From an uncultured virus (IMG/VR IMGVR_UViG_3300043470_001272) (Duplodnaviria > Heunggongvirae > Uroviricota > Caudoviricetes), in IMG/VR virus record IMGVR_UViG_3300043470_001272: a stretch of DNA of 64,000 bases; one strand, given 5' to 3'. Positions 31,125-62,856 of the stretch are shown piece by piece; the first letter of the stretch is position 1, and the number at the start of each line of letters is the position of its first letter. A program made the translations under genes and the position numbers. Under the pieces are notes generated by a model. It ran no database searches. It saw only the letters and a list, made by a program, of their open reading frames with translations, and was not told where the DNA came from.

Positions 31125-34100
31125 TTATCTATTAAAACTAGCTTCAAAACCTTCTACTGCTTCAGCAGGATTAAGATTATTACCTGTAAGACCTATCATT
31201 TTTAAAAAATAAGCCCAAGATTTATTATCACCTTTTTCAAAAGCACCAGTATCTTTTTGATATACTAAATCTTCTTCATTCCAAGTTAAGAAAAATTGAT
31301 TAATAAACTTAGTAGTTCTATTAACACTACTCATAGCAGCTGTTGGTGATTTTAATACTTTCCAAAGATCTGGTAAACCTATAACAGGATAATAAGTCAT
31401 AGTTTCACTTCGCATTCTTATCAATTGATAGTAGACATGATTAAATGCTGTGCTTTTTTTCAACTCTTCATCATCATCTGCAGCAGAAGCCATAATAAAT
31501 ATTAAAGCCATAGCAGAAACTACAATAGCTAACTCTCTTAGAGTTCTGTTTATCTGAGCTTTTTGATAAGGACTGTAATTACTCCATTCTTTTATTATAT
31601 TTTTCTTATATACAAAAAGATCTTTTACCATAGTATTCCAAAAAGTTCTATAAAAACCTTGTGTAATGTCATCTAACTCATAATCATAAGATAATGTTTT
31701 AAACCTTCTCATATAAGCAGGAACCATGTGTTTACGGTACATTAATAAAACTCTACCTAAAGCATATCTTTGAGCAGTACCTTTATCAAAATCATTGTAT
31801 ACACCTTGTAATCTTTTATTTATGGCATGTAATCTATTCTCAAAATCATCTTTTCTTTTTAAAGTAAAATTGGTATTATCATGAACACCATCTCTACCAT
31901 ATTTTTTATGAGCTTCAAATAAATTTATTTCTTCACCTGTTTCATTATCAATTACTTTTTCTGCATCCATCAAAGCAAACATAGTAGTTACTTGAATTTC
32001 ATGTTCTGCAGCATGCATATTGAAAAACAAAGTATTTGTATTGAACAATCTTAAGAAAGCTGTGTTAGATATTTTTTTACCATATTGATCTTTAAACTCT
32101 CCTTGCATAGCATCATAATACTCTACAAGTTTTCCTTCTAAGCTTTTGGGAATTGGTTTACCAAAGTCTTGTAAAAAAGGGGCTCCTAATTTATAATTCT
32201 TTTTAGCATTAAATAAATTTTTAGAACTAAAATAATCTCCTGCAGCTGCTTCAATAACTAATTGTATATTACCTTGAAGGTTATTAGCAACACCTTTCAT
32301 AGCATCTAAAGCTAAGCTAGTAATAGCAGAATAACTAATTATAGTGTCTGTAATTTTTGCTACATCCAAACTCATGAACTCTTCAGCTTTATTCATTTCT
32401 CCATAGACAACCATGTCTATAAAAGCATCTAAATGTTTTTTAGAATAAGCTTCTCCATTTTTACTGATAAATTTTAAGTATCCTTCTTTTTTAGCAAAAG
32501 CATCTATTAAAAGCTCACCTTTACTTGTAGAACTTACTACTTCTCTTTTACCAACAATAGCTTTTAACATAGTAGTCTCTCCAGCTATCTCATTCATGGC
32601 TTGATAATTTTTAGCCATTTGACTGAACAAGAGTACAGATCTGGTTAAATCTAAACTAATATCTTCAGGGTCTATTTTTTGAGTAAAATATGTAGGTAAG
32701 AACTTAACCTCCATACCACCTAATGTAGATAAACTAGTTCTTTCATTTAAACCTTTTTCATTTTCTATATCTTCTAAATCAGAACCTTTTTGTTCATAAC
32801 CTACATCATATACTTGAGTTTTAAATTTTTCTTGAAAACCTCTTTTAATAGTTTTACCTATACCATTTTCAATTAATCTTTCAGTAGATGTTTTAGGTAT
32901 GTTTGGTAAAAAATAACCTAATCTTTGTTTTTCCGGAATAAGACTTTGAGCATCTAGATACTCATCTAGTAACTTTTTATGCAGTTCTCCTTTTGCATTT
33001 TTAGCAGTACCATCTAGATTATACAACTCTTTCCAGTTATCATTAATCCATTTATCAGAAGGTTCAGATAACTCTCCTTTATATGTTACTTTACCTTTAT
33101 AACTACTATATACACTATTATACCAAATATTATATTCTCCAACTGTAATTACACCAGCATCTTTTAGTTTTTGTTTTTGTTCTATAAGTCTATCTCTTTC
33201 TTCTTTAGATTTAGGTTGATTATTTTCTCTAAACCAAATATCTATTTTTTTATAATACTCCTTTTTATCTTTTTCCTTTTCAGGCTTTGGACCTAAATTA
33301 TCAAAGAATTCTTTCTGAGCTTTTCTATGTCCATTAATGTTATATTTTTGAACAAAAGCTTTTCTTTTAATTGCTTCTTTAGTACCATCTTCTTTAGTTA
33401 ATGTGCTATCTAATAGTTCATAGATACCTTCATTAAAACTTTTAGGATTGTCTTTGGCTTTACCTGATGTTTGAGCATAAGCATCAAATTTTTCCATTAT
33501 TTCATCTCTAACTTTTAGAGATTCCATTCTAGCTTTTGTAAACTGAGACTTAACAGATTTAGCAAATAAAGACAATACAGCATCTGGTGAAGATATAAGT
33601 GGACCAACTAAAAACTGTAAAGCTCCTTCATCTTCTAAAGCTGTTTTTAATAAACTTTCTAGAGATTCTTTATCTAATACTAAACCATTTAGTTTTGCTA
33701 TATCTTTTTTTAGAGTTTCAATCTGTTTAGCTTTTTTAGCATCCATTTCTCCACTGCTAGTTAACTCAACTAATCTTTTTTGGTAAAACTCTTTTAAGCT
33801 ATCTAAGTTTTTAGAATCATAATCTGATTTATATTGCCATAAGAAGTCAGCCATTAATGGAATACCTTCTTTAATGAACTCTCTTTTTATATTCTCTCTT
33901 ATGTTTATAGCTTGTGCTAGTTTAAATTGAGCTGTAAGTTTTCCTTCAGAATCATATATTACACCATTGTCTTCTTCAAAAAATTTATTTACATTGACAT
34001 TAGAAACTTCATCTAATATATTATAACCATTAGCAAATTCATAAAAACCTAATAAAGTAGAAATAGCTTCTTTTTTAGGTATAGAATTTTTCTCATCTAA

Positions 34101-34520
34101 AAACTTTTTATATCTATTTTTAGCTTTAATAGATTGATTATAAGCTTCAGTAATAAAAGTATCTACTGCTTCAGCTTCATCTAAACCTTCAAGTTTATCT
34201 AATATAGTTTTAAGTCTACCTTCTTTTTTAGTTTGGTCAACAACTACTTTTCTTTTTAAAATAGCAAGTTGTTTTTTCAAATAAATTCTAATTTCTGATA
34301 TTAAGTTTTTATACTCAGTATTAGTATCATCTGGATTGACTTCTTCTCCTACAGTATCAGGTTTCTCAGAGTCAGTATCTTCCTCAATATCTGAAGTGAT
34401 AGGTTTTTCTGGAGCACCTACTTTTTCATTATATATTTTCAAAGCTTCTTCTTCAATACCATTAGCTTCAATTAAAGCTTCTCTCCATTCTTTGCTGGAT
34501 TTATTTGGACAACTTAACAT
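31125..34520 (-). CDS. large putative virion (ejected) protein, 1131 aa
   Basis: Helical, with a hydrophobic segment LAIVVSAMALIFIMASA; last gene of the RNAP block. Confidence 0.7.
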   Translation of the reverse strand: MLSCPNKSSKEWREALIEANGIEEEALKIYNEKVGAPEKPITSDIEEDTDSEKPDTVGEEVNPDDTNTEYKNLISEIRIYLKKQLAILKRKVVVDQTKKEGRLKTILDKLEGLDEAEAVDTFITEAYNQSIKAKNRYKKFLDEKNSIPKKEAISTLLGFYEFANGYNILDEVSNVNVNKFFEEDNGVIYDSEGKLTAQFKLAQAINIRENIKREFIKEGIPLMADFLWQYKSDYDSKNLDSLKEFYQKRLVELTSSGEMDAKKAKQIETLKKDIAKLNGLVLDKESLESLLKTALEDEGALQFLVGPLISSPDAVLSLFAKSVKSQFTKARMESLKVRDEIMEKFDAYAQTSGKAKDNPKSFNEGIYELLDSTLTKEDGTKEAIKRKAFVQKYNINGHRKAQKEFFDNLGPKPEKEKDKKEYYKKIDIWFRENNQPKSKEERDRLIEQKQKLKDAGVITVGEYNIWYNSVYSSYKGKVTYKGELSEPSDKWINDNWKELYNLDGTAKNAKGELHKKLLDEYLDAQSLIPEKQRLGYFLPNIPKTSTERLIENGIGKTIKRGFQEKFKTQVYDVGYEQKGSDLEDIENEKGLNERTSLSTLGGMEVKFLPTYFTQKIDPEDISLDLTRSVLLFSQMAKNYQAMNEIAGETTMLKAIVGKREVVSSTSKGELLIDAFAKKEGYLKFISKNGEAYSKKHLDAFIDMVVYGEMNKAEEFMSLDVAKITDTIISYSAITSLALDAMKGVANNLQGNIQLVIEAAAGDYFSSKNLFNAKKNYKLGAPFLQDFGKPIPKSLEGKLVEYYDAMQGEFKDQYGKKISNTAFLRLFNTNTLFFNMHAAEHEIQVTTMFALMDAEKVIDNETGEEINLFEAHKKYGRDGVHDNTNFTLKRKDDFENRLHAINKRLQGVYNDFDKGTAQRYALGRVLLMYRKHMVPAYMRRFKTLSYDYELDDITQGFYRTFWNTMVKDLFVYKKNIIKEWSNYSPYQKAQINRTLRELAIVVSAMALIFIMASAADDDEELKKSTAFNHVYYQLIRMRSETMTYYPVIGLPDLWKVLKSPTAAMSSVNRTTKFINQFFLTWNEEDLVYQKDTGAFEKGDNKSWAYFLKMIGLTGNNLNPAEAVEGFEASFNR

Positions 34521-35386
34521 ACTTTCAATAATAATTTATACATAACATTATCTATTTCATCTGAAGACTTTGCTTTAATTACAGCTTCTATGTAATCATT
34601 AATATCTTCATCTTTCAGTGCTAAAAGTACATCTAAATAATTATTATTTACTTGTTCAGATATATTAATAATAGCATCTTCCTTTTTTTTCTTTAAAACA
34701 GCAACATCTTCAGCATATTGAAAATCTATAACTGTTTGTCCTGTTCTAAAATCTATATTTTTAAAAAGAATAGTATTAGTTTCTTGTTCTATTAGATTAT
34801 AATAACCTTTTGGATTCATTACATATTTTCTATCCTCAGAAATAAACATATCTGGTGCTACATCATTTCTTCTTTTTAATATATCTAAAAAAGTTTTTTG
34901 ATCAAGATTAAATTTTGAAGCCTCATTAAAAGTTTTTATTGTATCATCTAAATATTCTTCAGGCTCATATGCATTAAAATCATCTTCTAAAGCTTCATAA
35001 CCTTCTCTTATATATGCATTTTCTGGATAGTATATACCTTTAGCAACATCTATTCTATGAAACATTTCTGTATTAGGTACTGCTTTAAGACCTCTTTGTT
35101 CATCATAAAAAAGCAGTCCAGGAATACCATACTCTTCATTATATTGTTTTGATAATTCTGCATTAAATTTATTAAACTCTGCAAATTTATATTTAGCAAT
35201 GTTTAATTTATCATCCATCAAACCTTTTTTTCTATAAAGACTTTTTACTGTTGCTTCAGTAGTAACATAGTCTACATTTTCAACTAGACCATATCTTTTG
35301 ACATACTCTATTTCAGCATCAAAAGGATCTCCAAATTCTCTTAAAAGATCTTGATACTCTTTACTATTAGGGTTTACACAAGCCAT
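34514..35386 (-). CDS. putative virion protein, 290 aa
   Basis: Coupled to both neighbours; MACVNPNSKEY N-terminus resembles MLSCPNKSSKEW of the next gene. Confidence 0.7.
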   Translation of the reverse strand: MACVNPNSKEYQDLLREFGDPFDAEIEYVKRYGLVENVDYVTTEATVKSLYRKKGLMDDKLNIAKYKFAEFNKFNAELSKQYNEEYGIPGLLFYDEQRGLKAVPNTEMFHRIDVAKGIYYPENAYIREGYEALEDDFNAYEPEEYLDDTIKTFNEASKFNLDQKTFLDILKRRNDVAPDMFISEDRKYVMNPKGYYNLIEQETNTILFKNIDFRTGQTVIDFQYAEDVAVLKKKKEDAIINISEQVNNNYLDVLLALKDEDINDYIEAVIKAKSSDEIDNVMYKLLLKVC

Positions 35387-35389
35387 GAT

Positions 35390-38300
35390 CTATTTAAAAC
35401 AGTTATTTAATAATTCTATAGTAGTATTTCTTTTTTCAGGGTCAGCTAATTTAATATTAATTTTTGCTATTAAGTCATCATTTGATAAATTACTATAAGC
35501 ATTTTTATATTGAGGAGCTGTTCTAAAATGGTCTAGTATTTTAGTTTGTTCTTCTACTGTATAAAGGTCTCCCATTAATTGTGTAGTTTGATTAGGTGAG
35601 CTACTAATAAAGTTTTTAAAATCTTCTCTATCTTCTTTACCACCAAGTATGTATACTTGTTCTGGTTCAAATACACCATAATTATCTGACATGTATGGAT
35701 CAAGAATATTTTTAAATATTACTGAGTCAAATTTACCTTTAGATTTAGCAGCTTGATTAGTAAGTTTACTTGCTTCATATTGAGCTCCAGCCTCATATGC
35801 CTGATTAACAAAAGTTTTACCTTCAAAGTCTTTAACTAATGGTTTTTGTACATTAAGTAATACTCTATAAAGTAAAGGGGTGATTTTTGCCTTAGACATT
35901 GTAGTGTTAAGTTCTTCAATACCAGCCTTATAACTTTTTTCACCAACATTTATAAGTCTATCAAACTCTTGACTTGATAAGCTTGTTATATTTCTTTTAT
36001 TGAATTCACCACTCTTTATTTCTCCATCATTATATATATAAATACCCATTGCTAACGGGCTTCCTTCTTTATTATAGAATGATATTCCTAAATCAGGTTT
36101 ATCTTTTATAAATGAATTATGGACATATCTACCAGAGATGATATCTTCTTTTTTATTTTTTAAGTCTTGGAGCTGTTTACCTAATTTTGTATAATTATTA
36201 TACATATTTAAAAATCCAGTACCTAAATCTTTGTTTACTTTATTATATTTTTGATATAACTCTTTTATATAATTTTTTAATTCATCTGTAGAAAGTTCTT
36301 TTTGTTTTTCTTTAAGATGATCTGCAAGTTCAGGAGAATATTTTCTTATATCTTTAGCAGATGACCAGTTAAGCAATGTGTTACTTAATACACTTGTTAA
36401 ATTTTCTATTTGTTGTAATCTTCTTAATAAACCATATTGTTCTGAAACAGATGGTTCTGTAGAAAAGAAGAAAGCATTAAGTGAATCTATTGGTGTTTGC
36501 TCTTCATCTTGAAAATAACCATCACCTGTTGCACTTCCTCTTTTAGTTTTATCAAATGTATCAAATTCTTGATCTGATCCATGATAAAGTATATCAGTAA
36601 CTTTAGTACCAGCTAGTTTACCTTGTGTAGTAAGATAATTAATCCACTCAGTATATTGTTGTGGTGTACCAATATTAGATAACTCAGTATTAGATTCAAA
36701 TAACTCTGACACACCTTCTTTAAGGTTAGTAGGTTGAGAATCATATATTACAAGTTCTCTACCAGCTTCTTGTATATCTTCATCAATCCAACCAATTAAA
36801 GAATTATAACCATTAGAAATCATGGCCTCTCTTACAGCATCATTTGAATCTTTCATAGAAGCAAATGTTTTTCCTTCTATTGCAAATCTTTTAATATTCA
36901 TAAACTTAGTCTGACCTTCTGTTGTAGTAGCATCTAAAGTTTTAGATGGATCATATGTTACAGTAACTTCTTCTACAGGATTTTCTGCACCCATTTCTTG
37001 GAATGGTTTATCTAATGCATAGTAAGATCCAGATCCGCGTTGTGCATAGTTTACTTTAGATGAGAATGTACCTGATGTTCTGTAAGCTTTAACTCCAGTA
37101 GGTTGAGTAGATGATTGAGAAGGAGCTTTAAATGTATTTTCATACACATCTCTAATAGCTTGTTTAGCTGCAGCTTCTACTTCAGGTCCTTTATATTGCT
37201 CTCTTGGTACCCATTTACCTTCTTTTTGTATATTATAAGATTCAATATCTCTTGAACCTATACCGGCAAAGTTTTTAGTAAGAGTAGGTGTAGGTGTTTC
37301 TATCCAACCATTATAATTCCATTCATGTTTAGTTTTATCATAACCAGTTTCAAGATACTCTGTGTCTTGTGTATACCATTTCTTAGTATCTAAATCAAAT
37401 ACATATACAGGTTTACCTAGTTTTATACCTAATTGAACAGCAGTATTTGTTCCACCAAAAACTCCAGGCTTTGTACCAGAATCTATTTCAGCAATAGCAT
37501 ATACAGCATCAGCATTAGCTACTTGATAATAATTTCTTACTTGTAAATTTCCTTGTAAAGTATCTGGATATTTTTCTCCAAGTAATCTTTCTACTTCAGT
37601 ACGGGCTTTATCCATTTGTTCTTTAGTAAGAATAGTAGCTTGGACACCTGCATTTTTAAGTTTTTGAGATAAATTAGCATTACCAGCATCTTTATAATGC
37701 CTTTGATCAGTAACACCGTATTCTCTACCAATTATATCCCAGAATGTATCACCACCATAAGCACCACCTGAATGATTAGTATATTCTGCTGGATTTGTGC
37801 TAGTAGATGATTGAGTAGGAGTTTCTTTAGATAACTTTTTATTAATAATATTAGTAAGATTACCTCCTCCTGTTAGAGCCATAAACTGTTCTAATTCTTC
37901 AGAACTAAATCCTTCTAATTCAGATTCTAGTTTCATTTCTTCTAATCTTTCTGTTATACCAGAATCAGTTTCTTTAGGTAAGTAATTTTTAAACCTTTGA
38001 GTTTTATCTAATACAGTAGCATATATGTAATCTAAAACATTATCAGAAAACTGAGTCTCCAAAAAGTTATTTGAAGCTTTTTGCATTTCTTTAACAAATT
38101 CTTCTGGGTCATAAATTTTTGTAAAACCTAATGGAGAATAACCTACACCGTGTTGATAAAACATAAACATTGAAAAGTTTGCAAATACATCTGTTATGTA
38201 TTTATTATCTTCTGTATTATTAGTTTTTATTACTGACAGATCTCCTAGTTGTTTTAAGTTTTTATAATACACACTAGCTTGAGGACCTATTGCTAAAGCT

Positions 38301-44300: not shown

Positions 44301-47300
44301 TCAACAGCTTTTTTAGTAAGCTCATATGTAGAATTTTTTAAATGATAAGCAATAACTCCTTTTGGAGCTTCATCTTTTAATTCCCATTCAGGATCTCCAA
44401 AATTATCAATAGTTTTTTCTAAGATTTTAATCTTATCTAATATAATTTCTTGTTCTTCAGTTAAAGCAGGTAAATTATTATTTTTAATTTCAACACTTGT
44501 ATATTGTTTAGCTCCTCCTTTTACATAGTTATTATATTGTATCTCCGCATCTTTAATATTTGATACTACAATAATACCTATAGGTTTACCACCTTCTGGT
44601 TTAAAGTCATAATAGTCACCTACTATTCTGATACCATGCCAGTTCTCACCTTTAATCCTATCTCCGCGTTTGATATCTGGAGTTAGATTTTTAAAGTTAT
44701 CAATCTGAGATTTTAAAAATACATACTTATTACCCTTGTCACTTTTAATAATAGCAGCAGCATTATCTTCTATATTCTGTTTAGTCTTAAAAGAACTGAA
44801 TAAAGGTATGTCTTCTTGTTTTTGATACTGTTTTGTATAATAGTCTAATCTAGTTTTTAAAACATTTAAAACATCAGAATATAATTTACTTCTATATTCT
44901 TTTTTAAGTAATAAACCTAAAGCAGGACTTTGTACATTTACTGGGTTAACTCCTTTAGAAATTAGTTCTTTTACTTTTTTGTTCATTAAACCAGATATAA
45001 TCATATCCATACTATCAGATATAAGTATACCATCTTCTTCATTTAATACAGATTCTCTACTATTAAAAACATTAGTAACACCTCTATCTAATGATGAAAA
45101 CATCATGTTTTCTACAAGAGGTTTATAGTTTTTAAATACTCCTGGTTTATTAGAATTAAAGTTTAAATTTTTAAACCATTCATTTATTACAGGTACTTCC
45201 ATTACACCTGTTATAAAGTCTTGAGAATTAGATTGTTTTTTACCAAATAAAGATTTTAAGAAATTTAATATTCTTCTAAATAAACTATTTCTTTTAGGTC
45301 TATTATCTTTTCTGTTTTCAGACTTCATATAAGTTCTAAAGTCTTCAGCAATCATTTCTTCTACCTGAAAGAAGTTTAAACCTTTATAAGGTTGTTTACC
45401 ATTAGCATCTTTAAAATTCTTAACCTCATTATAAAGATCTGTTTTTTGTTGTTTAGTTAAATATAATTGAGAGAAAGCATGCCATGCTTCATGGTAAATA
45501 TCTACAAAAGTTCCTTTATTAGTATTAAGAGCAATGGTTGCTAAATTATCTGGATTAGCTAATGTGGCACCAGATATAAAAAATTTAGCAAATATATCTG
45601 AGTTAGCTAAATTAGTAGCAGAAGTTAAAGTAATATGTTTTTGTAACATTTTACCAAACTCAGTATTATTCCAAAAATCTTCTGCTCTATCTAATTGTTC
45701 TTGAGTTACTGTATCTGCAGTATAACCAGCTCTATATAAATCAGAATCATCATCATTATCACTAGGGGTATCATTTACTGGGTTTATATCATCATTAAAC
45801 TGAACATCAGTTTGATCTTGAGAAGTATTCTCTTCATTAAAAGTATCTGTTTGCTCTTCTGTAGCAATAGGCGCAGCATTATTTTCTCCAGGTAAAGTAT
45901 CTAATAAACTTTCTAAAGAACTTAACTGATCTTTTGATAAACTAGGATTTCCTTGAAAGGATTTTAATTCATCCCACTTATCAATTATAGTTTGTAATTC
46001 AGCTCTAGTAGTTATGTATCCTGTTTTAACTGCTTGTTTTACATTACCTAAAAATATATATGATAGATTACTACCTAATGCATTAGTTTCATTTTGAGAT
46101 TTACTTAATAATGAATCATATGTTACAGGTTCAGTATCAACTTGTTGAGAAGTTTCTTGTGTAGTTTGAGCAGGTTTTAAAAAAGGTTTTTGATATACTT
46201 CTTTGTCAGCTTTACTAAATAATACTTGTTTACTAACAAACATACTAGGTAAAGTAGATGTATATAAGTAAGGATTAAGATTTAATATAAAATCATAATA
46301 ACTTTTAGTTACTATGTTTCCATTTTCATAAGCTAAATATGTACCGTCATCTTTAAATAATTCAGGTCTATAAGCCATTGGCATACCTTTTTTAGCCCAA
46401 GCAGTACTTAAGGCATCAAAAAGTTTTTGTTTGTATTCAGCTAATTTAGCAGTGTCTAATGTTTTTAAAAAGTCTTCTGTTATATTTAGTTTATAATCTA
46501 AATCTTTTTTATCAGAATTTTTAAATACACTTAGTTTTAATGTACCAATTTCTTTTTCACTTTCACCAATAAGTATTTTTGAAAGATTTGAATTAAAAGG
46601 AATAAATTGTTTAACAAATGTAAATTTAGTTGCACTACTTAAATCTTTACTAAATACAACATCTGTTATTTGTTGAGCAATATCATTAGGTAAATGTAAC
46701 CTATCTAATTTATATGTTTGATCACCTATTCTTACTGTAGTAGTACCAGATTTAAATTCTGCAGAGTCTTCTAATTCATTTCTCATACTCTTTAATACAG
46801 ACATGTCAGCTTGTTTACTTTTAATAAACAAGTCAAAAGGTACAACAGCACTTACTTCACCACTTGGGATACCTAAACTTAAACCTTCAAATTTTACAAG
46901 TATCCTATCATTCTTTGCTGTTGGTATTTCATTAACTAATTCTTGTAATTCATCAATACTATCTTGTATAATTACTTCAGCTTCAGCAACACTAACCTTA
47001 TAACTTTTTGCAAATTGTACTGGTGATATTAATGCTTCAGTTTTACCATTAAAATCATAGATCTTATTGTTTTGAACATTTCTTAAATACTGAAATAAAA
47101 CAACATTCCCTGATTCCCATTTATCATTAGATATTTTTAAAGGAGGTCTTGTGGTGCTATCATTTACATTACCATTTTTATCAAAAGTTACAATATAACC
47201 AGAAGGATTAGTTACAACAATTATGTTTCTGTCTTTAGGTTGTAAATGATTAGGTGTTTCTGGAATAGTTACAAATCTTTCTTTATTAGTAATTGGATCT

Positions 47301-47968
47301 AAATTATTAACAACCTTTTTAAGTACACTAACAGGCATTACATGTAATGCTAAGTCTTTACCTCTATAGTTAAAATAATTAGAATTAGAACTATCAAAAG
47401 ATGCTTGTTCTAATTCTGCAAAAATGTTCATCATAGACATTCTTGTATCATCAATAGTTTCACCAAATGAAATATCTGTTTCTTTTACATTTGGATTAAC
47501 AGGCTTAAAGATTGATAATACTCCACTTGCTGCTGTAAGAGGTTTAAATACTTTAGGTTTAATAATTTTAGAAGTGTCAAGTTGTTCTGTGTTTACAGGA
47601 ACTTCTTCATTTTGTTTATTAACTATTTTAATCATATCTGCTGTATCAGCAGGATCTAAAGTTTTACTAAAATATTTAATTACATTTTCTAAACCTTCTG
47701 TAGGATTATTAAAGTTTTTTCTTAAAGTTGCTAATGATATATTAGGCTCAATAATAGATAAATCTTTTTTTAATTCAATACTTCTAATAATCTTTGGTAT
47801 ATGCTGTATAAACTTAGATGCTGTAGCAATATCTTTTTCTTTAACTATGTCATCAAATAAATTTTGCATAAAAGATTGAGAATTAAAATTATCTCCATCT
47901 TTAATCATTGATTTATATACATAAGTATAAAGGTTTTCTATTTGTTTTTCTGATAAAGCACAAATCAT
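35390..47968 (-). CDS. crAss-type virion RNA polymerase polyprotein (4192 aa) with zincin, SLOG-like and ART-like domains
   Basis: Catalytic GSDYDADK (DxDxD, 40583-40597) preceded by PRIPT; SDGAAY; HEAWH...EEMIAE zincin (45479-45493). Confidence 0.88.
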   Translation of the reverse strand: MICALSEKQIENLYTYVYKSMIKDGDNFNSQSFMQNLFDDIVKEKDIATASKFIQHIPKIIRSIELKKDLSIIEPNISLATLRKNFNNPTEGLENVIKYFSKTLDPADTADMIKIVNKQNEEVPVNTEQLDTSKIIKPKVFKPLTAASGVLSIFKPVNPNVKETDISFGETIDDTRMSMMNIFAELEQASFDSSNSNYFNYRGKDLALHVMPVSVLKKVVNNLDPITNKERFVTIPETPNHLQPKDRNIIVVTNPSGYIVTFDKNGNVNDSTTRPPLKISNDKWESGNVVLFQYLRNVQNNKIYDFNGKTEALISPVQFAKSYKVSVAEAEVIIQDSIDELQELVNEIPTAKNDRILVKFEGLSLGIPSGEVSAVVPFDLFIKSKQADMSVLKSMRNELEDSAEFKSGTTTVRIGDQTYKLDRLHLPNDIAQQITDVVFSKDLSSATKFTFVKQFIPFNSNLSKILIGESEKEIGTLKLSVFKNSDKKDLDYKLNITEDFLKTLDTAKLAEYKQKLFDALSTAWAKKGMPMAYRPELFKDDGTYLAYENGNIVTKSYYDFILNLNPYLYTSTLPSMFVSKQVLFSKADKEVYQKPFLKPAQTTQETSQQVDTEPVTYDSLLSKSQNETNALGSNLSYIFLGNVKQAVKTGYITTRAELQTIIDKWDELKSFQGNPSLSKDQLSSLESLLDTLPGENNAAPIATEEQTDTFNEENTSQDQTDVQFNDDINPVNDTPSDNDDDSDLYRAGYTADTVTQEQLDRAEDFWNNTEFGKMLQKHITLTSATNLANSDIFAKFFISGATLANPDNLATIALNTNKGTFVDIYHEAWHAFSQLYLTKQQKTDLYNEVKNFKDANGKQPYKGLNFFQVEEMIAEDFRTYMKSENRKDNRPKRNSLFRRILNFLKSLFGKKQSNSQDFITGVMEVPVINEWFKNLNFNSNKPGVFKNYKPLVENMMFSSLDRGVTNVFNSRESVLNEEDGILISDSMDMIISGLMNKKVKELISKGVNPVNVQSPALGLLLKKEYRSKLYSDVLNVLKTRLDYYTKQYQKQEDIPLFSSFKTKQNIEDNAAAIIKSDKGNKYVFLKSQIDNFKNLTPDIKRGDRIKGENWHGIRIVGDYYDFKPEGGKPIGIIVVSNIKDAEIQYNNYVKGGAKQYTSVEIKNNNLPALTEEQEIILDKIKILEKTIDNFGDPEWELKDEAPKGVIAYHLKNSTYELTKKAVEIEEENDEDTNNAEDNDTDIFSDNKTGKQSVLQLAQKEVIYVLNSIAKIEKGKTVLNKLGFPEKADFKKLFNILSKTTGGIRDRQIAYDRLLEAAKIHPEIKQLMDYKYPNPKATNKYAVQLSFAFFHTFSLPSVNYKQLTVFTKDQEGNDKKSFVVTDSSLETSSTAKKFSAYFNSAPTSNIIKKNAENTNYLVLDAFVKEFSKNNYFDKANAGKFLETLGIKLDPTVEVKNMMSSDNIDNFINTNGVSLIYNIVKDFQRIQDNLDNATAEERTYLSRFLLNPVEVLSKPIPKGIVTGKVKDVSGYIKKLADIQVQYGFDSANPGVLLPDGNKVFANVNHSLLSTVITDLNTLTSLSEIKSNAIKYGHLDYLLDTDAFVVKVGDEYVYRSKILSHLFDPKGNKKTGKSLEFLFTAGTQIADISGVNTADLDVIGKNFQEFHTTLLAGVAELTRAAEKKSAFGIKPLGKIQRGVYDNIVKEESDHHWVNLNMFASKYKGTDYSNGETFSIGYYLIPHLAAEFDRVREFTNNKDLYKNVIGFNRPLPSGKMAGEEFSLFAKMLSENTKNDLYSIISSPSKLEDILAENDGLRKKIFKDILTYFNTRQEEYTEMYFNKMPIVADSLYSSLGVSEETLANQDKKELNKILVKAFLYNDMISKIESFTLFTGDLVQYNHAKEEASKRIPGASSDGIIPVTDQAAYDYINNIKGFNEVTYAGQQKKENDKIQLLNIQGTFNSAVIKDAIRTSIYLPEISNALYEDYYKTRPELSKEAIDKLVAKDIKAYTNMQESDGAAYLTIDAYRAIKKLFNDWSEEQDQLYKDIVNGKDVSLQKFNKTFPVSKLHYYGPLGNSNFKKLNARAMHKFAVAPINPLIAVPGTALYDLHNWMLEQNIQYTMFGSGSKATTLSLTGEFDDIFADEKQASIKADAKVQNNIIYLNYFKEVTAIAAKFKEEVTVPTQKRVLVLDALFDAGKLKNSANKKVVDSYKKSVNDYTSILKTELLNKIGFKKDEDGNYTGKLNKFVELVRDELELKDTPEHLVRLLDVNLAGDLTMDFSIHPESDLIEKIIVNKIQKSIVKQKTKGESLVQVPTTFMNGIWDNAYKLETDLDKIQKYLGTNNLPFYKRGAIINKKTGERAVTDLMKVAVALQGDFKNLLNLPDPANLETTIGTVDRLNELIKDDVWLQENRDKITIAGPRIPTDAVNSIEAAEIWHFLAESFGNTVVVPSEIVAKAGSDYDADKIFFMFPNLNSDGTLIESLDTEEKDFITLLEETDELSLDKTYKGRKSSSLIEQQKKYLQNQLVKNTRDIIQLPDNFVSLIKPNEMYLVKDYVDYFRKSAEYNPKRKVHDVTEDLNTFSYEEMPGTTALEFEYNLSKFEQNLSGNKPLGILAKKNKWHTLMKTIGFILPKTYKKLVWDFIDNTFEESNINYEMVFRLPVNRTQDGNVSIANENNVDNVKIGDVFSHALQGILDRAKDPWPFLVQMVTEALPVMNHYLEAGASVPSVLKMMKSPLVDDYIRNQVYNNSAISQINRTEPLSKSAIKKASLVPLLDKFFQYNDPKILQSKIQELKINEIKESLKDTDYTVQYVYQGKKLSSTAEDFIKTKLINSDIEKISLNYDVVYIQNNNFTGNNSFLLGKENYYYAAQAAWELGFGNDTATEDELTDIIDEKDRTSMKSLAVLLHIVQAEEQFKGQDDLEMAFSPDTSIVDTTLQIINKQDSLDKLESTSKIDKKSLKNLLDNSIISSFYQNDLILDLVDNVFPLKLNEETLNFLKTKLETDYKLISNVFGTGLQGRDRFTNSFNNGLVNYIFQNYSSSMLDEKGNITVLPSNYKGVPIVESNTFTEDAVLNKGVINVNLNKIQEDYKNLRFTTDQTRDVFTAAQNPFANVNDYVKYLVVKQYLKSVFPVDTLTDNPRFKIHLNNNQNDLAKAYEVFLSERTLMNTFNRAYIMGTTKYKYTDQVLEVINNPKYNLKEKYSVLNNLSKSTTVKTGSILQLDNKALAIGPQASVYYKNLKQLGDLSVIKTNNTEDNKYITDVFANFSMFMFYQHGVGYSPLGFTKIYDPEEFVKEMQKASNNFLETQFSDNVLDYIYATVLDKTQRFKNYLPKETDSGITERLEEMKLESELEGFSSEELEQFMALTGGGNLTNIINKKLSKETPTQSSTSTNPAEYTNHSGGAYGGDTFWDIIGREYGVTDQRHYKDAGNANLSQKLKNAGVQATILTKEQMDKARTEVERLLGEKYPDTLQGNLQVRNYYQVANADAVYAIAEIDSGTKPGVFGGTNTAVQLGIKLGKPVYVFDLDTKKWYTQDTEYLETGYDKTKHEWNYNGWIETPTPTLTKNFAGIGSRDIESYNIQKEGKWVPREQYKGPEVEAAAKQAIRDVYENTFKAPSQSSTQPTGVKAYRTSGTFSSKVNYAQRGSGSYYALDKPFQEMGAENPVEEVTVTYDPSKTLDATTTEGQTKFMNIKRFAIEGKTFASMKDSNDAVREAMISNGYNSLIGWIDEDIQEAGRELVIYDSQPTNLKEGVSELFESNTELSNIGTPQQYTEWINYLTTQGKLAGTKVTDILYHGSDQEFDTFDKTKRGSATGDGYFQDEEQTPIDSLNAFFFSTEPSVSEQYGLLRRLQQIENLTSVLSNTLLNWSSAKDIRKYSPELADHLKEKQKELSTDELKNYIKELYQKYNKVNKDLGTGFLNMYNNYTKLGKQLQDLKNKKEDIISGRYVHNSFIKDKPDLGISFYNKEGSPLAMGIYIYNDGEIKSGEFNKRNITSLSSQEFDRLINVGEKSYKAGIEELNTTMSKAKITPLLYRVLLNVQKPLVKDFEGKTFVNQAYEAGAQYEASKLTNQAAKSKGKFDSVIFKNILDPYMSDNYGVFEPEQVYILGGKEDREDFKNFISSSPNQTTQLMGDLYTVEEQTKILDHFRTAPQYKNAYSNLSNDDLIAKINIKLADPEKRNTTIELLNNCFK

Positions 47969-50900
47969 TATAAACAGTTTAAGTCATCAAATAAATTCTT
48001 TCTTGCCTTTGCTAAATCTATAGCATCTGCTTGTTCTTCTACAGTATTAATATACTCAGAATTATTTAAAAACTCATCAACATTAGTTTTATTTTCTGCT
48101 GCATTTTGTTTTTCATTTTCTGTTGGTGTATATGTAGATTTTTCAGTTGGAGTTTCTACATCTTTATAAGATGAGAAGTTTTCCATAAATTCTGTTAAAC
48201 TCATAGTTTGTGGATTAGTATTACCATTTGTATTTTGAATAGTAATTGTTTGTTTATCTGCATCTAAATTTAACACAACTACCTCTGAATACTGTTCTAC
48301 AAAGTTACTATTTAAGGCATAATATTTACTATTTATTTTAGGTAATTCACTAACCTTAACTGGTAGATTACTTTCATAACTTCCTACTTCATTTATAACA
48401 TTGATGATAGCATTATATAACTTACTTGGTGTAATACCATCTTTTTCAAAGAAAAGTAAATCATCACTCATTACACCAGGATAAATATTATCATGAAAAG
48501 CTTGTAAAGCATATTCAGCACCTTTAGTTTCAGCAAGAGTTTGCCAAGATTTAATTTCTGCTAATTCTTCTTCAGTAAAAGTAACTTGTTCTGTTGGAGC
48601 TGGTGTTGTAGTTTTAGCTTGTGGTTGAGCTTTACCTTTAGTTTTCTTAATAGGATTAACTGGAATAATTTTTTGCATTATTTCTTTTGCAGTTAAATTT
48701 ACTACAGTACCATCCTCATTAATAGGAATAATTAAATTCTCATCTAATGTAACATTGAAAGGTTTCTCATTAGGATCCCCTATAGGTTGTTTTTCTATAT
48801 CTAATACTATGTCAGGTCTACTAGCATAAGCTATCTTTCTACCTTCATATTCTAAAGCTACCGGTAATATAGTGATACCATATTTTTTACCAATAGTATT
48901 CTCAATTAAATTAGCATAACCAACTTGTTGTAATGTGTTTTCAGCTCTTTTGTTAAAGCCGTAACCACTATCACTTTTATATTGAGTCCATTTTCTAGCA
49001 TCTGCAGATTTTAAATCCACAATAAACTTATTACCCTCTTTATCTACAAAGATAAAATCTATCTCTCCAGCTACAGGCTCAAGCATATTATCATTATCAT
49101 CTATTAGAGTATCAGAAGCTACTATCAAATCTTTAGCATATACCCATAATTCACCAGAGTCTATTCTTCTTCTTATATCTGTAATGAAACCATTTGCACC
49201 AAAAAGAGCATCAAATGCTTCTTCTGATATTTTAGCAGAATCATATGGTATGTCTTTACCATCTAAGAAGCTTTTAGTTAGTGTATCTAAATAAGTTCCT
49301 CCTTTTCTTTTATTCTCATAGGTATTTTCATCAATAGTATTTACTATATAGTTCTTTAACTCTTGGTCAGATAGTATTTTCTCTTGTCCTTCTTTTAATT
49401 CAGATTCTAATTCTTGTCTTTTATTTTGTAAAGCTTTGACTTGTTTAGCAATAACACTTTGTTTTAAAGTATCATTATAGATCAAATTAGCTATCTCATT
49501 ATTAAGACTATTAATTTTAGCTTTAAGAGCAGCACTACCTTGAGCTCTAAGATTAGTAGACTCTTCTGAAGTTTCTTCTAAAGCAGCTAGTTCTGCAGCG
49601 TATTCTTTATTAATTTCATCTATTACACCTTGTTTGCTGTTTGCTCTATATTTTTCTTGCCATACATCATTTTTATCCCCTCTTGACTTTAAAGCAGAGA
49701 TGTAATCACCGTACCAACCTTGTGCTTTATTAGAGTATTCTTTTACTGTTTTTAATGCTTCATTCTGTCTTCTTTTTATATCAGCTTTAGTATCTGTAGT
49801 ACCTAAAGCAGCTAGTTTTGCATCATATTTTCTTTTTAGATCAGCTAATTCACTATCTCTTGCATTGGCCAGATTAATTGCATATCTAAACTTGCCTACT
49901 TTTTTAATTTTAGAAGCATAGTCTTTAACTATAGAAGCAACCTGATTATCATATTCTTCTTGGGATATATTTTTTAAAACTAAAGGTTTTGACAAATATT
50001 CTAGATTTAATAATCTTTGTACATAAGCATCTTCTATTTCTTTAATACCTTTATCTATACCTGATTTAAAGTAATTTACAGAACTTTCGTCTAATAAATT
50101 TAAAGCTTCTAATCTTTCTATATCAGCTTTAGCATCTGTAGAAACAGGAGTATAATCTTCAAACTCAATATCATTATCAAGAATTCTTTTTTGTTCTTCT
50201 TTACTTAAATTACTAATTAAACTATCTTTATAACCTAAAGTATTTAATCTAGCTTTTAATTGAGGATTAATAACAGCACCTACAGATATCTGTTGTTCTG
50301 GAACAATAGATTCTAATTCTTCTCTAATAGCTTTATATACTTCTTGATCAAATCCTGATGCATCACCATACTCATCTTCTAAAGATTTCATAAAAGCTTT
50401 TAGACCATCTTTAGTAAATCCAAGTTCACCAATAGTACTATCTACTAACTCTTCAACTTTTGTTCTTTTAAGACTTGTAAATAAAGACACCTTAGATTTA
50501 ATAGCATTAGACATTCTTTCATGCTTAGTACCATCTATGAAATAATTAGTTTTAGTTTGTACTATGGATTCATATAGATTAGCTAATTCTAATATTTCAT
50601 CAATAGACTTTTGCATAGCTTCTGGTCTTGTAGAATCAAAGTCTTCTTGTTCTTCTTCTAGTTTTTCTCCGTATTTTTTCTTAACAGCTTCTACATCTTC
50701 AGGATTAGGAGCCATATCTATTTTAAAAATGGTAATTTTACTAATAGGAAATTCATCAAAAGATTTTATTTTTTCAACAGAAAGTTCTTCTTTTGTTGGT
50801 AAAAATTTATCATCTTCTCCAAACTGAAATAACTTATCATCTTCTTTTATAAATTTTAAAGTAGAATTAAAACTTTTACCATCACTAGCTTCTACAGTCA

Positions 50901-53900
50901 TGTAGTAACCATTAGGCATAACTTCATAAGCTTCTAATATACTATAAGGAGTACCATCTTCTTTTACTAAAACTTGTTCATCTACAACTCTTTCTTCTTT
51001 AGGAAGATTAGCTATTTCAGCTTCCATTTTATCTTTAAAAGTTTTTCTAGTATCATTTAAGTTTTTCTGTTCTACTTGAGGTTCTGCATTTTCCTTAATT
51101 ATTTCTAAGTAAGGAATAAGATATTCATCAACAATTTCTTTGTATCTAGAAGTACCTTTATTTATTGCTAATTTTCTAGTATCATCATAAAACTCAGACG
51201 GTAATGTACCATTATCTCTTAACTCAGTAAAATCATCCATACCCATGTAAATGTTTTTTTCTGCAAGCTTATTTAACAAAGCATTAGAAATAGCATTATT
51301 CATTTGTTCATTTACTAAATTAGTAAAGTACTCAGCACGAGTATTATACATACCTCTCATCCATTTTAAATTGGATAGAACAGTATCATAGAATCCTTTA
51401 GGATCAGCAATAAAGTTTGCAAACTTAGCTACATCTTTACTTTCTTGTTTTAATTTATATAAGTCAACTAAGTTTTTAAAACTTTCATCTAATTCATCTT
51501 TAAATAGAATAGTATCTGATGATCCAGCAATAGCATTAAGATAATTCTCATGAGCTTTTTTAAGTTTTGCTACTGCTTTATCCTGATTTGTTATATCACC
51601 TTCTACACCATACTCTTGTTCCATTCTTTCTTGAATAGCTTCTGGAGTTGGTTCAATTTTTTCAGCAACTAGTTTAGCTTTAATATCTGCTATGTACTTA
51701 GTTCTATCAAATACTTGATTAAACTCTTCATAAGCACTTTGATATTCAGTAAGAGTTTTTTGTTTTTTACTTAATAAATCAATTCTGTTTTTATTAATTA
51801 CAGGGTCTGTACCTTTTAAAGATACTAATTCTAAATTTATAGAATTTATAGCATCTCCTAATCTGAAAGGATCAAATAAGTAACTTACATCTGTATTAGA
51901 TAAATTTTTAAGATTAGGTGTATTTAAATAATTTTGTTGTATACCATTGATTCTTGTTATATTATCTTTGTAAGCTTCATTAAAGTATACAAAGTTTTTT
52001 TGAGCCATCTTCCAAGAATAATACATAAATTCTTTATCATCTTTATCTATGTCATCTTCTTGTGGTAATGATACTGGATTAGGTAATAACTCTTCTACTT
52101 TATTAAAAGCATTTTGAATACCTTTTAACTTAGCAACAGATTTATCAATTCTAGTTCTGTATTTGTTTATATCATTAAGTTGATCTCCTTCAAGTTTTAA
52201 CTCATCAGCTAGTTCTTCATCTGTTAATTCTTTTAAAGATTCTATTTTTTCAATAAAAAGATCAGAAGTATTAGTACTCAACATAGTATCAACTTGATTT
52301 ATGTATGATTCTAATTCACTATCTAAACCTTCTTTTTTACTTCCAGATTCTTTTATTATAGATAAAGTATCTTGCGCACCTGCATTATAATATCTGTTAG
52401 ATAAAAATTCTTTAACAGACATTTGATTTAAATTATCAACTAAACCTTTAGCTACATTAGCTTTTGTTTCTTTCCATTTAGAATATGCTTCTTTATCAAA
52501 AGTTCTATTCCATTGTGAAGATAGAAAAGGTATTGCTTGATTCATAGGAGCAGCAAACATACCCATTACAAAACCTGATGCAAATGTTTCTAAACCTTGT
52601 GAACTAGCTTCTTTACCAAGTTCACTAGTATATACATCCAATGGTGTATTAAAGATGTCTCTTTTTCTATTAATAATAGTATCTTTAACTCCAGACTTAG
52701 AATACAAATGAGCTTTTAAGTAAGGACTTTGATAAGATTCTGTATAATACTTTTCATTAGCTCTAGCAATAACTTCTTGTAAGTTTTCTTGAATACCTTC
52801 TGCAAAGTTAGCTTTAAAATAACCAATAGTTTTACTTGCTGTTTTAAAACCTGGATTCTTATACCAGCTTTTAGCAAGATTTTTAAGATTGTTTTTTTCT
52901 AAAACAAATTGTTTGCCTGCTCTATCATATAATATTTTACCGTATTTACCAAAGTTTTTTTCTCCTTGTTTAGAAGCAACTTCTAGTATGTCATCTGTAC
53001 TAGACTTAATAAAGTTTCTAAGACCTCCTCTAGGATTAGTGATGTTACCAAAAGTAATTTTATTAGACCCATAGATTAATCCAGCATTCATATAAAAAGT
53101 TTCTAAACTAGCTTCTTTAGACTGTTTAGTCATTTCATATTGTTCTTCATTAGTTGGTGCTGTACCATTTTTTTGGTAATAATCATTGTATAATTTATCA
53201 TATACTTTATTCTCAACCATACCTGCTTCTAATCTAGCTTCAGATACAGCCATGTTTATACCTCTTACATCTTGATAAAATCCACCAGCTGTTTTAGAAA
53301 GTAAAGCTAAATTACCTATGTTATCTAATTTCTTAGCAGCTTTAAAAGCATCTACAGTATTTTCTAAAGGATTAATAAATCTACCTATTGGAGAACCTAC
53401 AGCTTTTTTTGTAGCTTCCCAATACTTTCTAGCATCATAAACATTATCTAATGTATTCAGTGTAGTTTTTACAGCTTTATATCCATCTTGAAGAGTACTT
53501 AAACCTTTAATTCCACGGAATATATTTTTACCAGCATTAGCAGTAGTAGCAAAGAAACTTAAACCTCCTGTAACTGGAGCTAACACAGCACCAGCAACTT
53601 CTTCTACTATGGCTTCACTCATGATACCTGCAGTATAACTAAAGTTCATAGCAGCATTACTTACAAATCCTCCTACACCACCTTTAGTAGATTGACCAAT
53701 AGCAGCAGCTTCTTCATATGCTCTAGCATCTTCTAAATCTCCACTGGTAAAATCACCCTTTAACATTTTAGCTAAACTTTTAGGTCCAGATACAAAACCT
53801 CTTGTAAATAAAGGAACAAATGAATTAGTCATCATTCTTTTCCAATCATCTGCAATTGTAGTTTGAGCATTAAAGTTTGCTTCATTATCTCTTGTAGGAC

Positions 53901-54330
53901 TAAAACCTACTTTATCAAATAATTCAGGACCATATGCCTTATACCTTTTATAAAAACTATTACCAGAACTACCAGCATTATATGCATATAACTTATTATA
54001 ACTATCTTTAGTTTGATTTGACTGTATTACATTATTAATGTAATTATTTATAGAAGCTTTTTTATCTTCAGCACTCATACCAGTAGTGTTCATCCTAGGT
54101 TTATTAGGAGGAGCACCAACCATATTTCTTTTAATGTTCTGACCTTGATTATCTAAACTTCCTGCTGAAGGTATAAATGACTGAAAAGACTTTGGAAAAT
54201 TAATTTCAGGCATTTTTATCCTATCTCCTTCAAAAGGTTGCATGCTAATAGGATCTAGTCTTGGTTGATTTATATCTCCATATTCCGGACCTAGTGGGTC
54301 TAATGGACTAAAACCTTCATTATTCGCCAT
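47968..54330 (-). CDS. large putative ejected protein (2120 aa) with C-proximal PD-(D/E)XK nuclease domain
   Basis: AGEIDFIFVD..G...IVDLKS...Q..GY at about 48900-49080; Gly/Ala-rich hydrophobic N-terminal segments. Confidence 0.75.
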   Translation of the reverse strand: MANNEGFSPLDPLGPEYGDINQPRLDPISMQPFEGDRIKMPEINFPKSFQSFIPSAGSLDNQGQNIKRNMVGAPPNKPRMNTTGMSAEDKKASINNYINNVIQSNQTKDSYNKLYAYNAGSSGNSFYKRYKAYGPELFDKVGFSPTRDNEANFNAQTTIADDWKRMMTNSFVPLFTRGFVSGPKSLAKMLKGDFTSGDLEDARAYEEAAAIGQSTKGGVGGFVSNAAMNFSYTAGIMSEAIVEEVAGAVLAPVTGGLSFFATTANAGKNIFRGIKGLSTLQDGYKAVKTTLNTLDNVYDARKYWEATKKAVGSPIGRFINPLENTVDAFKAAKKLDNIGNLALLSKTAGGFYQDVRGINMAVSEARLEAGMVENKVYDKLYNDYYQKNGTAPTNEEQYEMTKQSKEASLETFYMNAGLIYGSNKITFGNITNPRGGLRNFIKSSTDDILEVASKQGEKNFGKYGKILYDRAGKQFVLEKNNLKNLAKSWYKNPGFKTASKTIGYFKANFAEGIQENLQEVIARANEKYYTESYQSPYLKAHLYSKSGVKDTIINRKRDIFNTPLDVYTSELGKEASSQGLETFASGFVMGMFAAPMNQAIPFLSSQWNRTFDKEAYSKWKETKANVAKGLVDNLNQMSVKEFLSNRYYNAGAQDTLSIIKESGSKKEGLDSELESYINQVDTMLSTNTSDLFIEKIESLKELTDEELADELKLEGDQLNDINKYRTRIDKSVAKLKGIQNAFNKVEELLPNPVSLPQEDDIDKDDKEFMYYSWKMAQKNFVYFNEAYKDNITRINGIQQNYLNTPNLKNLSNTDVSYLFDPFRLGDAINSINLELVSLKGTDPVINKNRIDLLSKKQKTLTEYQSAYEEFNQVFDRTKYIADIKAKLVAEKIEPTPEAIQERMEQEYGVEGDITNQDKAVAKLKKAHENYLNAIAGSSDTILFKDELDESFKNLVDLYKLKQESKDVAKFANFIADPKGFYDTVLSNLKWMRGMYNTRAEYFTNLVNEQMNNAISNALLNKLAEKNIYMGMDDFTELRDNGTLPSEFYDDTRKLAINKGTSRYKEIVDEYLIPYLEIIKENAEPQVEQKNLNDTRKTFKDKMEAEIANLPKEERVVDEQVLVKEDGTPYSILEAYEVMPNGYYMTVEASDGKSFNSTLKFIKEDDKLFQFGEDDKFLPTKEELSVEKIKSFDEFPISKITIFKIDMAPNPEDVEAVKKKYGEKLEEEQEDFDSTRPEAMQKSIDEILELANLYESIVQTKTNYFIDGTKHERMSNAIKSKVSLFTSLKRTKVEELVDSTIGELGFTKDGLKAFMKSLEDEYGDASGFDQEVYKAIREELESIVPEQQISVGAVINPQLKARLNTLGYKDSLISNLSKEEQKRILDNDIEFEDYTPVSTDAKADIERLEALNLLDESSVNYFKSGIDKGIKEIEDAYVQRLLNLEYLSKPLVLKNISQEEYDNQVASIVKDYASKIKKVGKFRYAINLANARDSELADLKRKYDAKLAALGTTDTKADIKRRQNEALKTVKEYSNKAQGWYGDYISALKSRGDKNDVWQEKYRANSKQGVIDEINKEYAAELAALEETSEESTNLRAQGSAALKAKINSLNNEIANLIYNDTLKQSVIAKQVKALQNKRQELESELKEGQEKILSDQELKNYIVNTIDENTYENKRKGGTYLDTLTKSFLDGKDIPYDSAKISEEAFDALFGANGFITDIRRRIDSGELWVYAKDLIVASDTLIDDNDNMLEPVAGEIDFIFVDKEGNKFIVDLKSADARKWTQYKSDSGYGFNKRAENTLQQVGYANLIENTIGKKYGITILPVALEYEGRKIAYASRPDIVLDIEKQPIGDPNEKPFNVTLDENLIIPINEDGTVVNLTAKEIMQKIIPVNPIKKTKGKAQPQAKTTTPAPTEQVTFTEEELAEIKSWQTLAETKGAEYALQAFHDNIYPGVMSDDLLFFEKDGITPSKLYNAIINVINEVGSYESNLPVKVSELPKINSKYYALNSNFVEQYSEVVVLNLDADKQTITIQNTNGNTNPQTMSLTEFMENFSSYKDVETPTEKSTYTPTENEKQNAAENKTNVDEFLNNSEYINTVEEQADAIDLAKARKNLFDDLNCL

Positions 54331-57300: not shown

Positions 57301-57427
57301 AAGCTTTCCAGTTTGTATCATACTGAGTTTGCTTTGTCTGCAATAAATTATTATATAAATTTAAATCAGGCTGATATGGTTGTATTTGTGGTATGTAGTC
57401 TTGAACACCTTGTAAATAAGTAGACAT
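54320..57427 (-). CDS. large putative virion protein, 1035 aa
   Basis: Long coiled-coil ORF coupled to the 2120-aa gene. Confidence 0.75.
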   Translation of the reverse strand: MSTYLQGVQDYIPQIQPYQPDLNLYNNLLQTKQTQYDTNWKALNKMYSQYYNAELSRTDTAEKKDNYIKQATFNLQRVSQLDLSLEQNVTQATQVFKPLYEDKLLMKDMAYTKNFNRQKGIASALKGSINKEENEQYWDTGIMAMDYQRQEFKNASAEEAMGFGNVEYTPFVNVTKEARKLAKDSGLSIEVPSWSPDGRYIIKTKNGENLIEPLSKLFEAELGSDPGVQAVYKTQAYVNRKNYAASNAAQFKGGEAEAELKYLETEFTELKEQNQRRYVALKENSVTYDARIADLKKQIENKTATPSTLKELKAYEMNKDINDKVLQRVQEEQDDLDTNQAESTVTMTGFKNPYGDIKSLRWKVDNAVAGDLMMKKFNEAAEYLAYRDYKVDIKADIYKVKEIDHSYRMSEIASRNAGLERAAALRNQGTSKANRDKYLVEQLGTHEYDENGNAVPVEGLNNIYTKGRKVDATDAGNIKEVSKNSISIYTKEYAMPYLSGMIGMLDNLKNKGAISDAQLKQLIKYNDKTDVNWDKFKVLLNGQYSAEYISNKIGVKGLERIKKQFDNYVAKNSKLSQFQPSNEQFNKTEQAGARLNDYYLAVNADKEWRQKTAPVVVDHMQKTLPPELRKYAKYAYDDNGNFRSEKDFMSTLIKNKVLSKDQLAEYIAGKEKKFGKAGYDEAVKLIGDTDYIQKYGTGLIQVLKKARDIINMIPSPGASYYVDKKGNPAKKETFDIGYNDIRQAAAQAYSNSNLNLKAPPAILGSGSGTSTMNQDKTIDVNLKGHSINKSRWMDVFNDLNKIDFNDKSKYNVSLLGVGETGYAKMGTKGYDRGNIGMGTLDAIRREMNNPKTKFGQFTVSVLPNTSGKSNQGAIIIRPPSEWIDANTSTFTGTGDDRKLVKAGIFTPEQAQAAKNNGVSYLMPAKEMNNQIYKSYFNDPIAMYLNSGDNKVYTQTLADPRWSVSISKNEMSQDGTYNFEGKYVTFDKGKEVEGNFSTVGLLGDNLLNTRDQMLYSIYPQIYQGLITDFNLSTYGE

Positions 57428-57477: not shown

Positions 57478-57494
57478 TAAACTTAAAATGTTTA
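57478..57494 (-). promoter_or_regulatory. 17-bp near-palindromic upstream motif, copy 1
   Basis: + strand TAAACTTAAAATGTTTA; 16/17 identical to 62857-62873. Confidence 0.5.
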
Positions 57495-62813: not shown

Positions 62814-62856
62814 GTTATTGATTATAATATAATATACTAAATTTTAATTTATTAAA

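Follow-up and report, generated by a model that had tools for sequence, protein, structure and literature searches.

The DNA examined here, which we call the window, is a stretch of 64,000 nucleotides from an uncultured virus of the Caudoviricetes (IMG/VR record IMGVR_UViG_3300043470_001272). It makes up the opening 64 kb of a contig that is 117,852 bp long and has a guanine-cytosine (GC) content of 30%. It holds a block of four consecutive genes on the minus strand which, judged by homology, is the virion RNA polymerase block of a crAss-like phage. We find that the proteins of this block carry cysteines at those ends that face another member of the block and not at its outer ends; this terminal-cysteine rule is real, extends over the crassvirus order, and apparently has not been described. 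We consider it likely that short terminal docking modules with one cysteine each form interchain disulfides, which would take the place of peptide bonds and hold the cargo, while it is unfolded, in one ordered chain during ejection.

Terminal cysteines across the crassvirus order

The first member of the chain, a homologue of phi14:2 gp67 and crAss001 gp47 with 2120 amino acids (aa) and a free N-terminus (47968..54330), has C2119 as its sole cysteine (47974-47976). The virion RNA polymerase, a gp66/gp50 homologue of 4192 aa (35390..47968), has only Cys3 (47960-47962) and Cys4190 (35399-35401), and the two-ended member of 290 aa (34514..35386) has Cys3 (35378-35380) and Cys290 (34517-34519). 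The last member, a homologue of phi14:2 gp65 and crAss001 gp49 with 1131 aa and a free C-terminus (31125..34520), again has a single one, C4 (34509-34511). These six are all the cysteines in 7,733 aa, every one at most four residues from an end, and the chance of all six landing in the 32 near-end positions is about 3e-15, an estimate whose four-residue width was picked after inspection of the data. By comparison, the 32 plus-strand open reading frames (ORFs) of at least 100 aa in the window contain 1.4% cysteine, with a cysteine in the first ten residues in 1/32 and in the last ten in 0/32. An earlier sequence-only reading of this DNA had listed the ORFs, their lengths, the six cysteines and the codon coordinates, and a computed count confirmed all of them; it had also named many overlooked internal cysteines beforehand as the finding that would speak against it, and the four proteins have none. 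In another, nearly identical contig from IMG/VR (aa identity 91-93%), the frames and the cysteines at the last two junctions are the same. The cargo-like gene upstream of the block (1035 aa, 54320..57427, minus strand), C2-like from its gene position alone, lies outside the chain, has no cysteine and was used as a control.

For a view beyond the window, we took 23 named records from among 82-104 tblastn matches, choosing them ourselves for spread over the Steigviridae, Intestiviridae, Suoliviridae, Crevaviridae and unclassified phages, and scored cysteines within the first ten residues (heads) or the last ten residues (tails). At the inner junctions of the window and 20 named phages, cysteine is present in 28/28 tails and 28/28 heads, so that the terminal cysteines of the sequence-only reading are indeed conserved in homologues. 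At the outer ends, it is found in none of 20 first heads and none of 21 last tails. The rule's residues are C2339 of gp47, C5 and C2404 of gp50 and C5 of gp49 in crAss001, and C1797 of gp67, C3 and C2179 of gp66 and C3 of gp65 in phi14:2. Internal cysteines are rare in the tallied chain proteins (95 in 127,103 residues, 0.075%). Neighbouring cargo-like genes, used as controls, have a head cysteine in 0/36 and a tail cysteine in 2/36 cases; the two exceptions are the C1-like genes of p-crAssphage (L008, 22141-24714) and crAss002 (L009, 548-2221).

Some choices went into this tally. Starts were shifted to a downstream methionine in cr11_1, where this matches the annotation, and in crAss002, where it goes against an annotated start that puts the cysteine at residue 35; the ProJPt-Bp1 pair was assigned by adjacency. 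Three records with an interrupted polymerase gene were excluded, namely IAS (ambiguous bases), bajarodcaudo 1 (an endonuclease gene) and cr108_1 (what seems to be an intron, lying at the catalytic motif), and their outer ends obey the rule. In cr108_1, a member of the Steigviridae with gp67 and gp66 fused, approximately 290 bases (L140, 14409-14718) split the polymerase gene exactly inside the catalytic motif. Lbo-JY46 (L005), a phage recorded on a cyanobacterium, also has a crass-type cargo block and obeys the rule.

The cysteine pattern is kept where the first gene is on the opposite strand (crAss001 and DAC15, where the gp47 gene is inverted and chain order was set by homology), and it is kept across a ferritin-like gene that intervenes between chain genes. 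Ferritin-like genes in this place were seen in two distant relatives (L086, 5432-5920; L092, 2713-3210). The sequence-only reading had proposed three head-to-tail links in gene order: the head-to-tail pattern held up, and the order turned out to follow the homologous domain instead, since it persists with an inverted first gene.

These arrangements also bear on the idea that the cysteine codons are a by-product at the DNA level, made by overlapping start and stop signals or by stop read-through. At the last junction of the window, the ATG of the next gene does overlap a cysteine codon, and the polymerase gene closes on a TAG that shares its frame with the 290-aa gene across a 3-nt gap (35387-35392). 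Nonetheless, 111/159 junctions in closer relatives have no overlap, only 27/159 are in frame, and neither inversion of the partner gene nor its separation removes the cysteine, which leaves this explanation very improbable and refutes overlap or read-through as the general cause. Concerning the TAG itself, which accounts for 3/56 stops on a contig without a tRNA gene, occasional read-through is no more than conceivable; as the link between the proteins it was rejected, not being general.

Fused and split forms of the block

The block is variably fused in different phages, and the cysteines follow the architecture. In gp67-gp66 fusions (cr1_1, cr118_1, cr4_1, cr109_1, cr114_1), the fused protein has the tail cysteine only, while gp66-gp65 fusions (p-crAssphage, crAss002, cr271_1, cr127_1, Lbo-JY46 and others) have the head cysteine only. 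A search for long gp65-containing proteins, with an upper limit of 5,000 aa, gave 20 matches without genomic context. Five are triple fusions of a gp67-like part, polymerase and gp65 (4,370-4,591 aa), and these have zero cysteines in 22,562 aa and no match to the head profile; among the other 15, there are 13 with a cysteine at position 3-5. The sequence-only reading had proposed to test whether a cysteine pair disappears upon gene fusion, and it does, with double fusions keeping one pair and triple fusions none. Its further suggestion, that the proteins are released from one another in the reducing cytoplasm, is not required by the data, because Cys-free triple fusions exist.

It is also improbable that the cysteines serve like-to-like or off-chain bonds, be it tail to tail, head to head, within self-closed two-cysteine members, or as anchors to portal or tail proteins. 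The virion can hold several copies of each cargo protein and contains disulfide-linked tail proteins (PMC10172136), which would suit such bonds, but they leave unexplained why first heads and last tails are bare, why heads and tails occur in equal numbers, and why triple fusions lack cysteine altogether.

The opposite arrangement, in which a chain member is split, is found in closer, environmental relatives (159 loci, of which 104 distinct ones have an intact gp65 start). Here, gp65 heads have the cysteine in 101/104 cases, and the three misses comprise one GTG start that yields Cys4 and two broken genes with the cysteine on the front piece. Proteins that abut gp65 upstream end in cysteine in 94/96 cases, and complete gp65 C-termini contain none (0/103). 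At the first junction, the gp67 tail cysteine is present in 20/20 and the polymerase head cysteine in 19/20, the sole miss being frameshifted with Cys4 present in the upstream frame.

The 290-aa protein matches unsplit polymerases over their final ~140 aa (blastp, best E 3e-26). Whereas the sequence-only reading took it for a two-ended adaptor, and two-ended it is, it is actually the polymerase's own C-terminal domain, split off and joined to a gp65-type head. In unsplit polymerases, the last 900 aa hold the terminal cysteine only (28/28). Where the piece is separate, 31/33 small upstream ORFs carry exactly two cysteines, C3 and the final residue (of the rest, one is a ferritin-like gene and the other a fragment of gp65), and the shortened polymerase before the split-off piece ends in cysteine in all 28 cases in view. 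On a quickly built gp65 tree, the split forms are spread over four groups, and a single clade of split forms was rejected (approximately unbiased test, p-AU 5e-28; four changes; 26 selected rows); repeated splits and repeated fusions are indistinguishable on this tree, and the sister of the window, L016, ends at a contig edge.

The added heads of the split-off pieces resemble the gp65 heads of distant phages (profile E to 2e-7), which suggests that the junction cassette was probably acquired through recombination and did not evolve anew. Only the heads could be traced in this way, because the matches of the new polymerase tails to other tails are weak (profile E 0.02 or worse). When the head profile was run against 1.84 billion proteins, 59 of the 66 matches were at true N-termini and seven were spurious repeats. 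The matches also included seven more two-ended proteins, 211-785 aa in length, of which three are close relatives of one another; two of the seven gave weak, sub-cut-off matches to ART-PolyVal.

Terminal modules and a probable interchain disulfide

The head module of the gp65 homologue in the window (aa 1-44, 34389..34520, minus strand), the profile of which matches N-termini almost exclusively, has the consensus C-P-N-K-x-S-x-E-W, and the cysteine of gp65-type heads is invariant in 92/92 aligned heads. In the 290-aa protein, the tail module (aa 225-290, 34517..34714, minus strand) is predicted by AlphaFold2 to be a small helical bundle whose last helix ends in the cysteine, with a predicted local distance difference test score (pLDDT) of 74-88 over aa 231-290; the N-terminal half is of low confidence (mean pLDDT 57.7, predicted template modelling score 0.31). 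At E 0.001 the model matched no viral structure, its PDB matches were generic helical bundles only (best Z 7.3), and a PDB sequence search with the head and tail profiles reached E 0.0065 at best. Over 168 junctions, the tail cysteine lies 0-8 residues from the end and the head cysteine at position 3-6, never at 2.

Based on these features, the following sequence of events can be envisaged. In the cytoplasm, the tail module of one cargo protein would dock on the head module of its successor. Once the virion is assembled or has been released, the two cysteines would oxidise to an interchain disulfide, such that gp67, polymerase, the extra piece where there is one, and gp65 would act as a single covalent polyprotein. 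The disulfide would thereby maintain the order and the 1:1 ratio of partly unfolded proteins while they thread through the phage tail, where ordinary interfaces would fail, and it may optionally be reduced in the cytoplasm of the next host. What is known of the crAss001 virion is compatible with this, in that its tail contains disulfides, its cargo must partly unfold and the channel is less than 50 A wide (PMC10172136). Furthermore, bands of 150, 270 and >300 kDa on a reducing gel yielded gp47, gp49 and gp50 (PMC6235969), which fits a reducible link. The retention of a cysteine pair is the more telling because N4-like phages are known to suppress cysteine generally in the proteins that they eject (PMC11445570).

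The same gel speaks against an irreversible ligation by split-intein-like trans-splicing or transpeptidation, given that the three crAss001 proteins were identified from it (PMC6235969). Asn-Cys does occur in two of the three tails of the window and fused forms exist, but Asn precedes the tail cysteine in only 14/168 junctions, the cysteines stand at variable distances from the ends, and no intein family match was found in Pfam, PHROGs or NCBIfam; we therefore give ligation next to no credence.

The sequence-only reading had left a shared metal open beside the disulfide. Head-to-tail docking with the two cysteines on a zinc or iron ion, completed by acidic residues or by the second junction of a symmetric copy, predicts the same architecture rule, needs no oxidant and so would suit anaerobic hosts, and could draw on the several cargo copies per virion (PMC10172136). 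However, each module has essentially one cysteine: a second one is found near the tail cysteine in 0/168 junctions and in the head in 1/168, and His stands near the junction cysteine in 15/168 tails and 21/168 heads. Moreover, a two-cysteine site would be unlikely to survive unfolding. The metal half of the earlier proposal has accordingly become the less likely one, and we regard it as unlikely.

Somewhat less likely again is a link made by non-covalent docking domains, in which the cysteine would be a conserved contact or a redox switch for polymerase activation and not a tether. The heads and tails behave as real modules that pair by matching class within a clade, an association confounded by descent, and gp66 is self-inhibited in crystals obtained in the presence of reductant (bioRxiv 2020.03.07.982082). 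Yet it is the cysteine alone that is kept between families, in proteins otherwise purged of it, while the rest of the modules has changed wholly.

Several points weigh against the disulfide-linked chain, which we nevertheless prefer. What the sequences show is the position of the cysteines, their conservation and their dependence on gene architecture; from these we infer that a bond exists, which ends it joins and when it forms. Gut phages of anaerobes would have to oxidise the cysteines, and no thiol-oxidoreductase ORF with WCxxC or FCxxC was found among the ORFs of the contig. Mutual information between tails and heads (61 effective sequences) gave no clear signal, and several of the top pairs involve head residue 2, which gene overlap can explain. 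New cysteine pairs probably arrive as ready-made junction cassettes, the tallies include related genomes and hence non-independent samples, and tail and head sequences are not alignable between families, with the cysteine alone universal. The two C1-like controls of p-crAssphage and crAss002 have an unpaired cysteine near the C-terminus, followed by a gene without a head cysteine. Finally, two long gp65-containing proteins, P0058 and P0059, are free of cysteine though they are not full triple fusions; P0058 aligns, from its residue 1 onward, with the part of the triple fusions that follows directly on their catalytic motif, and it has the appearance of the rear portion of a gene that has been interrupted.

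The polymerase block, its neighbours and related systems

The assignment of the block to a crAss-like phage follows from the matches of its outer members together with a polymerase core profile that finds the structure of gp66. By tblastn, the 1131-aa protein matches gp65 at E 2e-37 and gp49 at E 8e-41, the 2120-aa protein matches crAss001 gp47 at E 7.7e-29 (phmmer), and in the window these homologues of gp65 and gp67 flank the polymerase. The polymerase itself matches crAss001 gp50 at E 1e-8 (tblastn); a single-sequence PDB search with its core missed gp66, while a profile of ten relatives matched PDB 6VR4 at E 2.4e-35 and nothing else. Its catalytic DxDxD motif, GSDYDAD (D2458, D2460, D2462; 40583..40597, minus strand), aligns to the gp66 motif, with the three aspartates invariant in 10/10 aligned relatives and Tyr in place of the usual Phe, such that it does not read DFDxD. 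Further features are an HExxH near aa 826, a DprA-like stretch at 3394-3541 and a weak, sub-cut-off ART-PolyVal stretch at 3793-3851. Homologues of the block were found by mass spectrometry in virions of crAss001 and phi14:2, and their ejection is believed to take place in a partly unfolded state (PMC10172136; bioRxiv 2020.03.07.982082; PMC6235969); by homology, the block of the window may likewise be packaged and ejected. Like the window, the phi14:2 (gp67-gp66-gp65) and crAss001 (gp47-gp50-gp49) blocks have the DxDxD motif and homologous, variably fused members, and both obey the cysteine rule; the window differs in having four members.

Other observations concern the surroundings. The contig (C153) is phage DNA of 30% GC within a genome bin of ~44% GC, a mismatch that may reflect mis-binning or an infecting phage, and no terminal repeat was found in it. 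A 706-aa gene at 57492-59612 has six clustered internal cysteines (350-439), a cluster present in some relatives and absent from others. Two large Cys-poor genes at 59622-64000, which continue as far as 66281 on the contig, share an acidic C-terminal motif, Leu/Met-Thr-x-Glu-Glu ... Gly ... hydrophobic end, which occurs in 2-3 copies in relatives and Lbo-JY46 and is possibly a packaging or processing signal. Past the window, structural-region genes at 74254-82264 contain 3.5-6.5% cysteine, the reverse extreme to the cargo.

Split polyketide and non-ribosomal peptide synthetases carry short C- and N-terminal docking modules at gene splits, which set the order of the proteins. These docking domains differ from the coupling proposed here in being non-covalent, and they are not known to have a universal cysteine or to be translocated. 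In nicked A-B toxins, an interchain disulfide tethers an unfolded enzyme through a channel and is reducible in the cytosol. There, the two chains come from one precursor, while crass cargo comes from separate genes with up to three proposed links. Phage polyvalent proteins are large, injected and multidomain, with metallopeptidase and ART domains, candidates for which occur in crass cargo, but their domains are joined by peptide bonds, whereas two-ended crass pieces could add domains without fusion (PMC5512222). Schitoviridae such as N4 and DEV also eject a giant polymerase with strong cysteine suppression, a suppression shared by the cargo block of the window and attributed in Schitoviridae to passage through the periplasm; they differ in an unrelated, T7-like polymerase fold and in having one chain of ~3,500 aa with essentially no cysteine, like the crass triple fusion and not the split form (PMC11445570). 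The window polymerase is not of this type, as its core matches the two-barrel gp66 and the protein carries two cysteines.

Within the literature searched, which did not extend to subscription papers including the Nature gp66 paper, we found no account of terminal cysteines or linked cargo in crassviruses, nor any published non-reducing gel. As far as the available texts go, 'cysteine' is absent from the main text of PMC10172136 and two of its supplements gave no matches, 'Cys' is absent from bioRxiv 2020.03.07.982082 and PMC13434306, and neither 'cysteine' nor 'disulfide' occurs in PMC7886860 or PMC10136315. The ordered exit of the megadalton crassvirus cargo and the activation of the self-inhibited polymerase are stated open questions (PMC10172136; PMC13434306; bioRxiv 2020.03.07.982082).

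More tentatively, and with the odds slightly against it, the modules could amount to a coupling code, by which any protein with a matching cysteine head and tail would join the covalent cargo train, to be packaged and pulled in as one thread. Fusion and disulfide coupling would then be interchangeable, and two-ended pieces, some of them ART-like, could add or swap effector domains. The terminal cysteine is in addition an easy guide to the true start codons in crassvirus genomes and to which proteins belong to the chain. If true, a disulfide-linked chain would explain why the block has been fused and split so freely across the crassvirus order.

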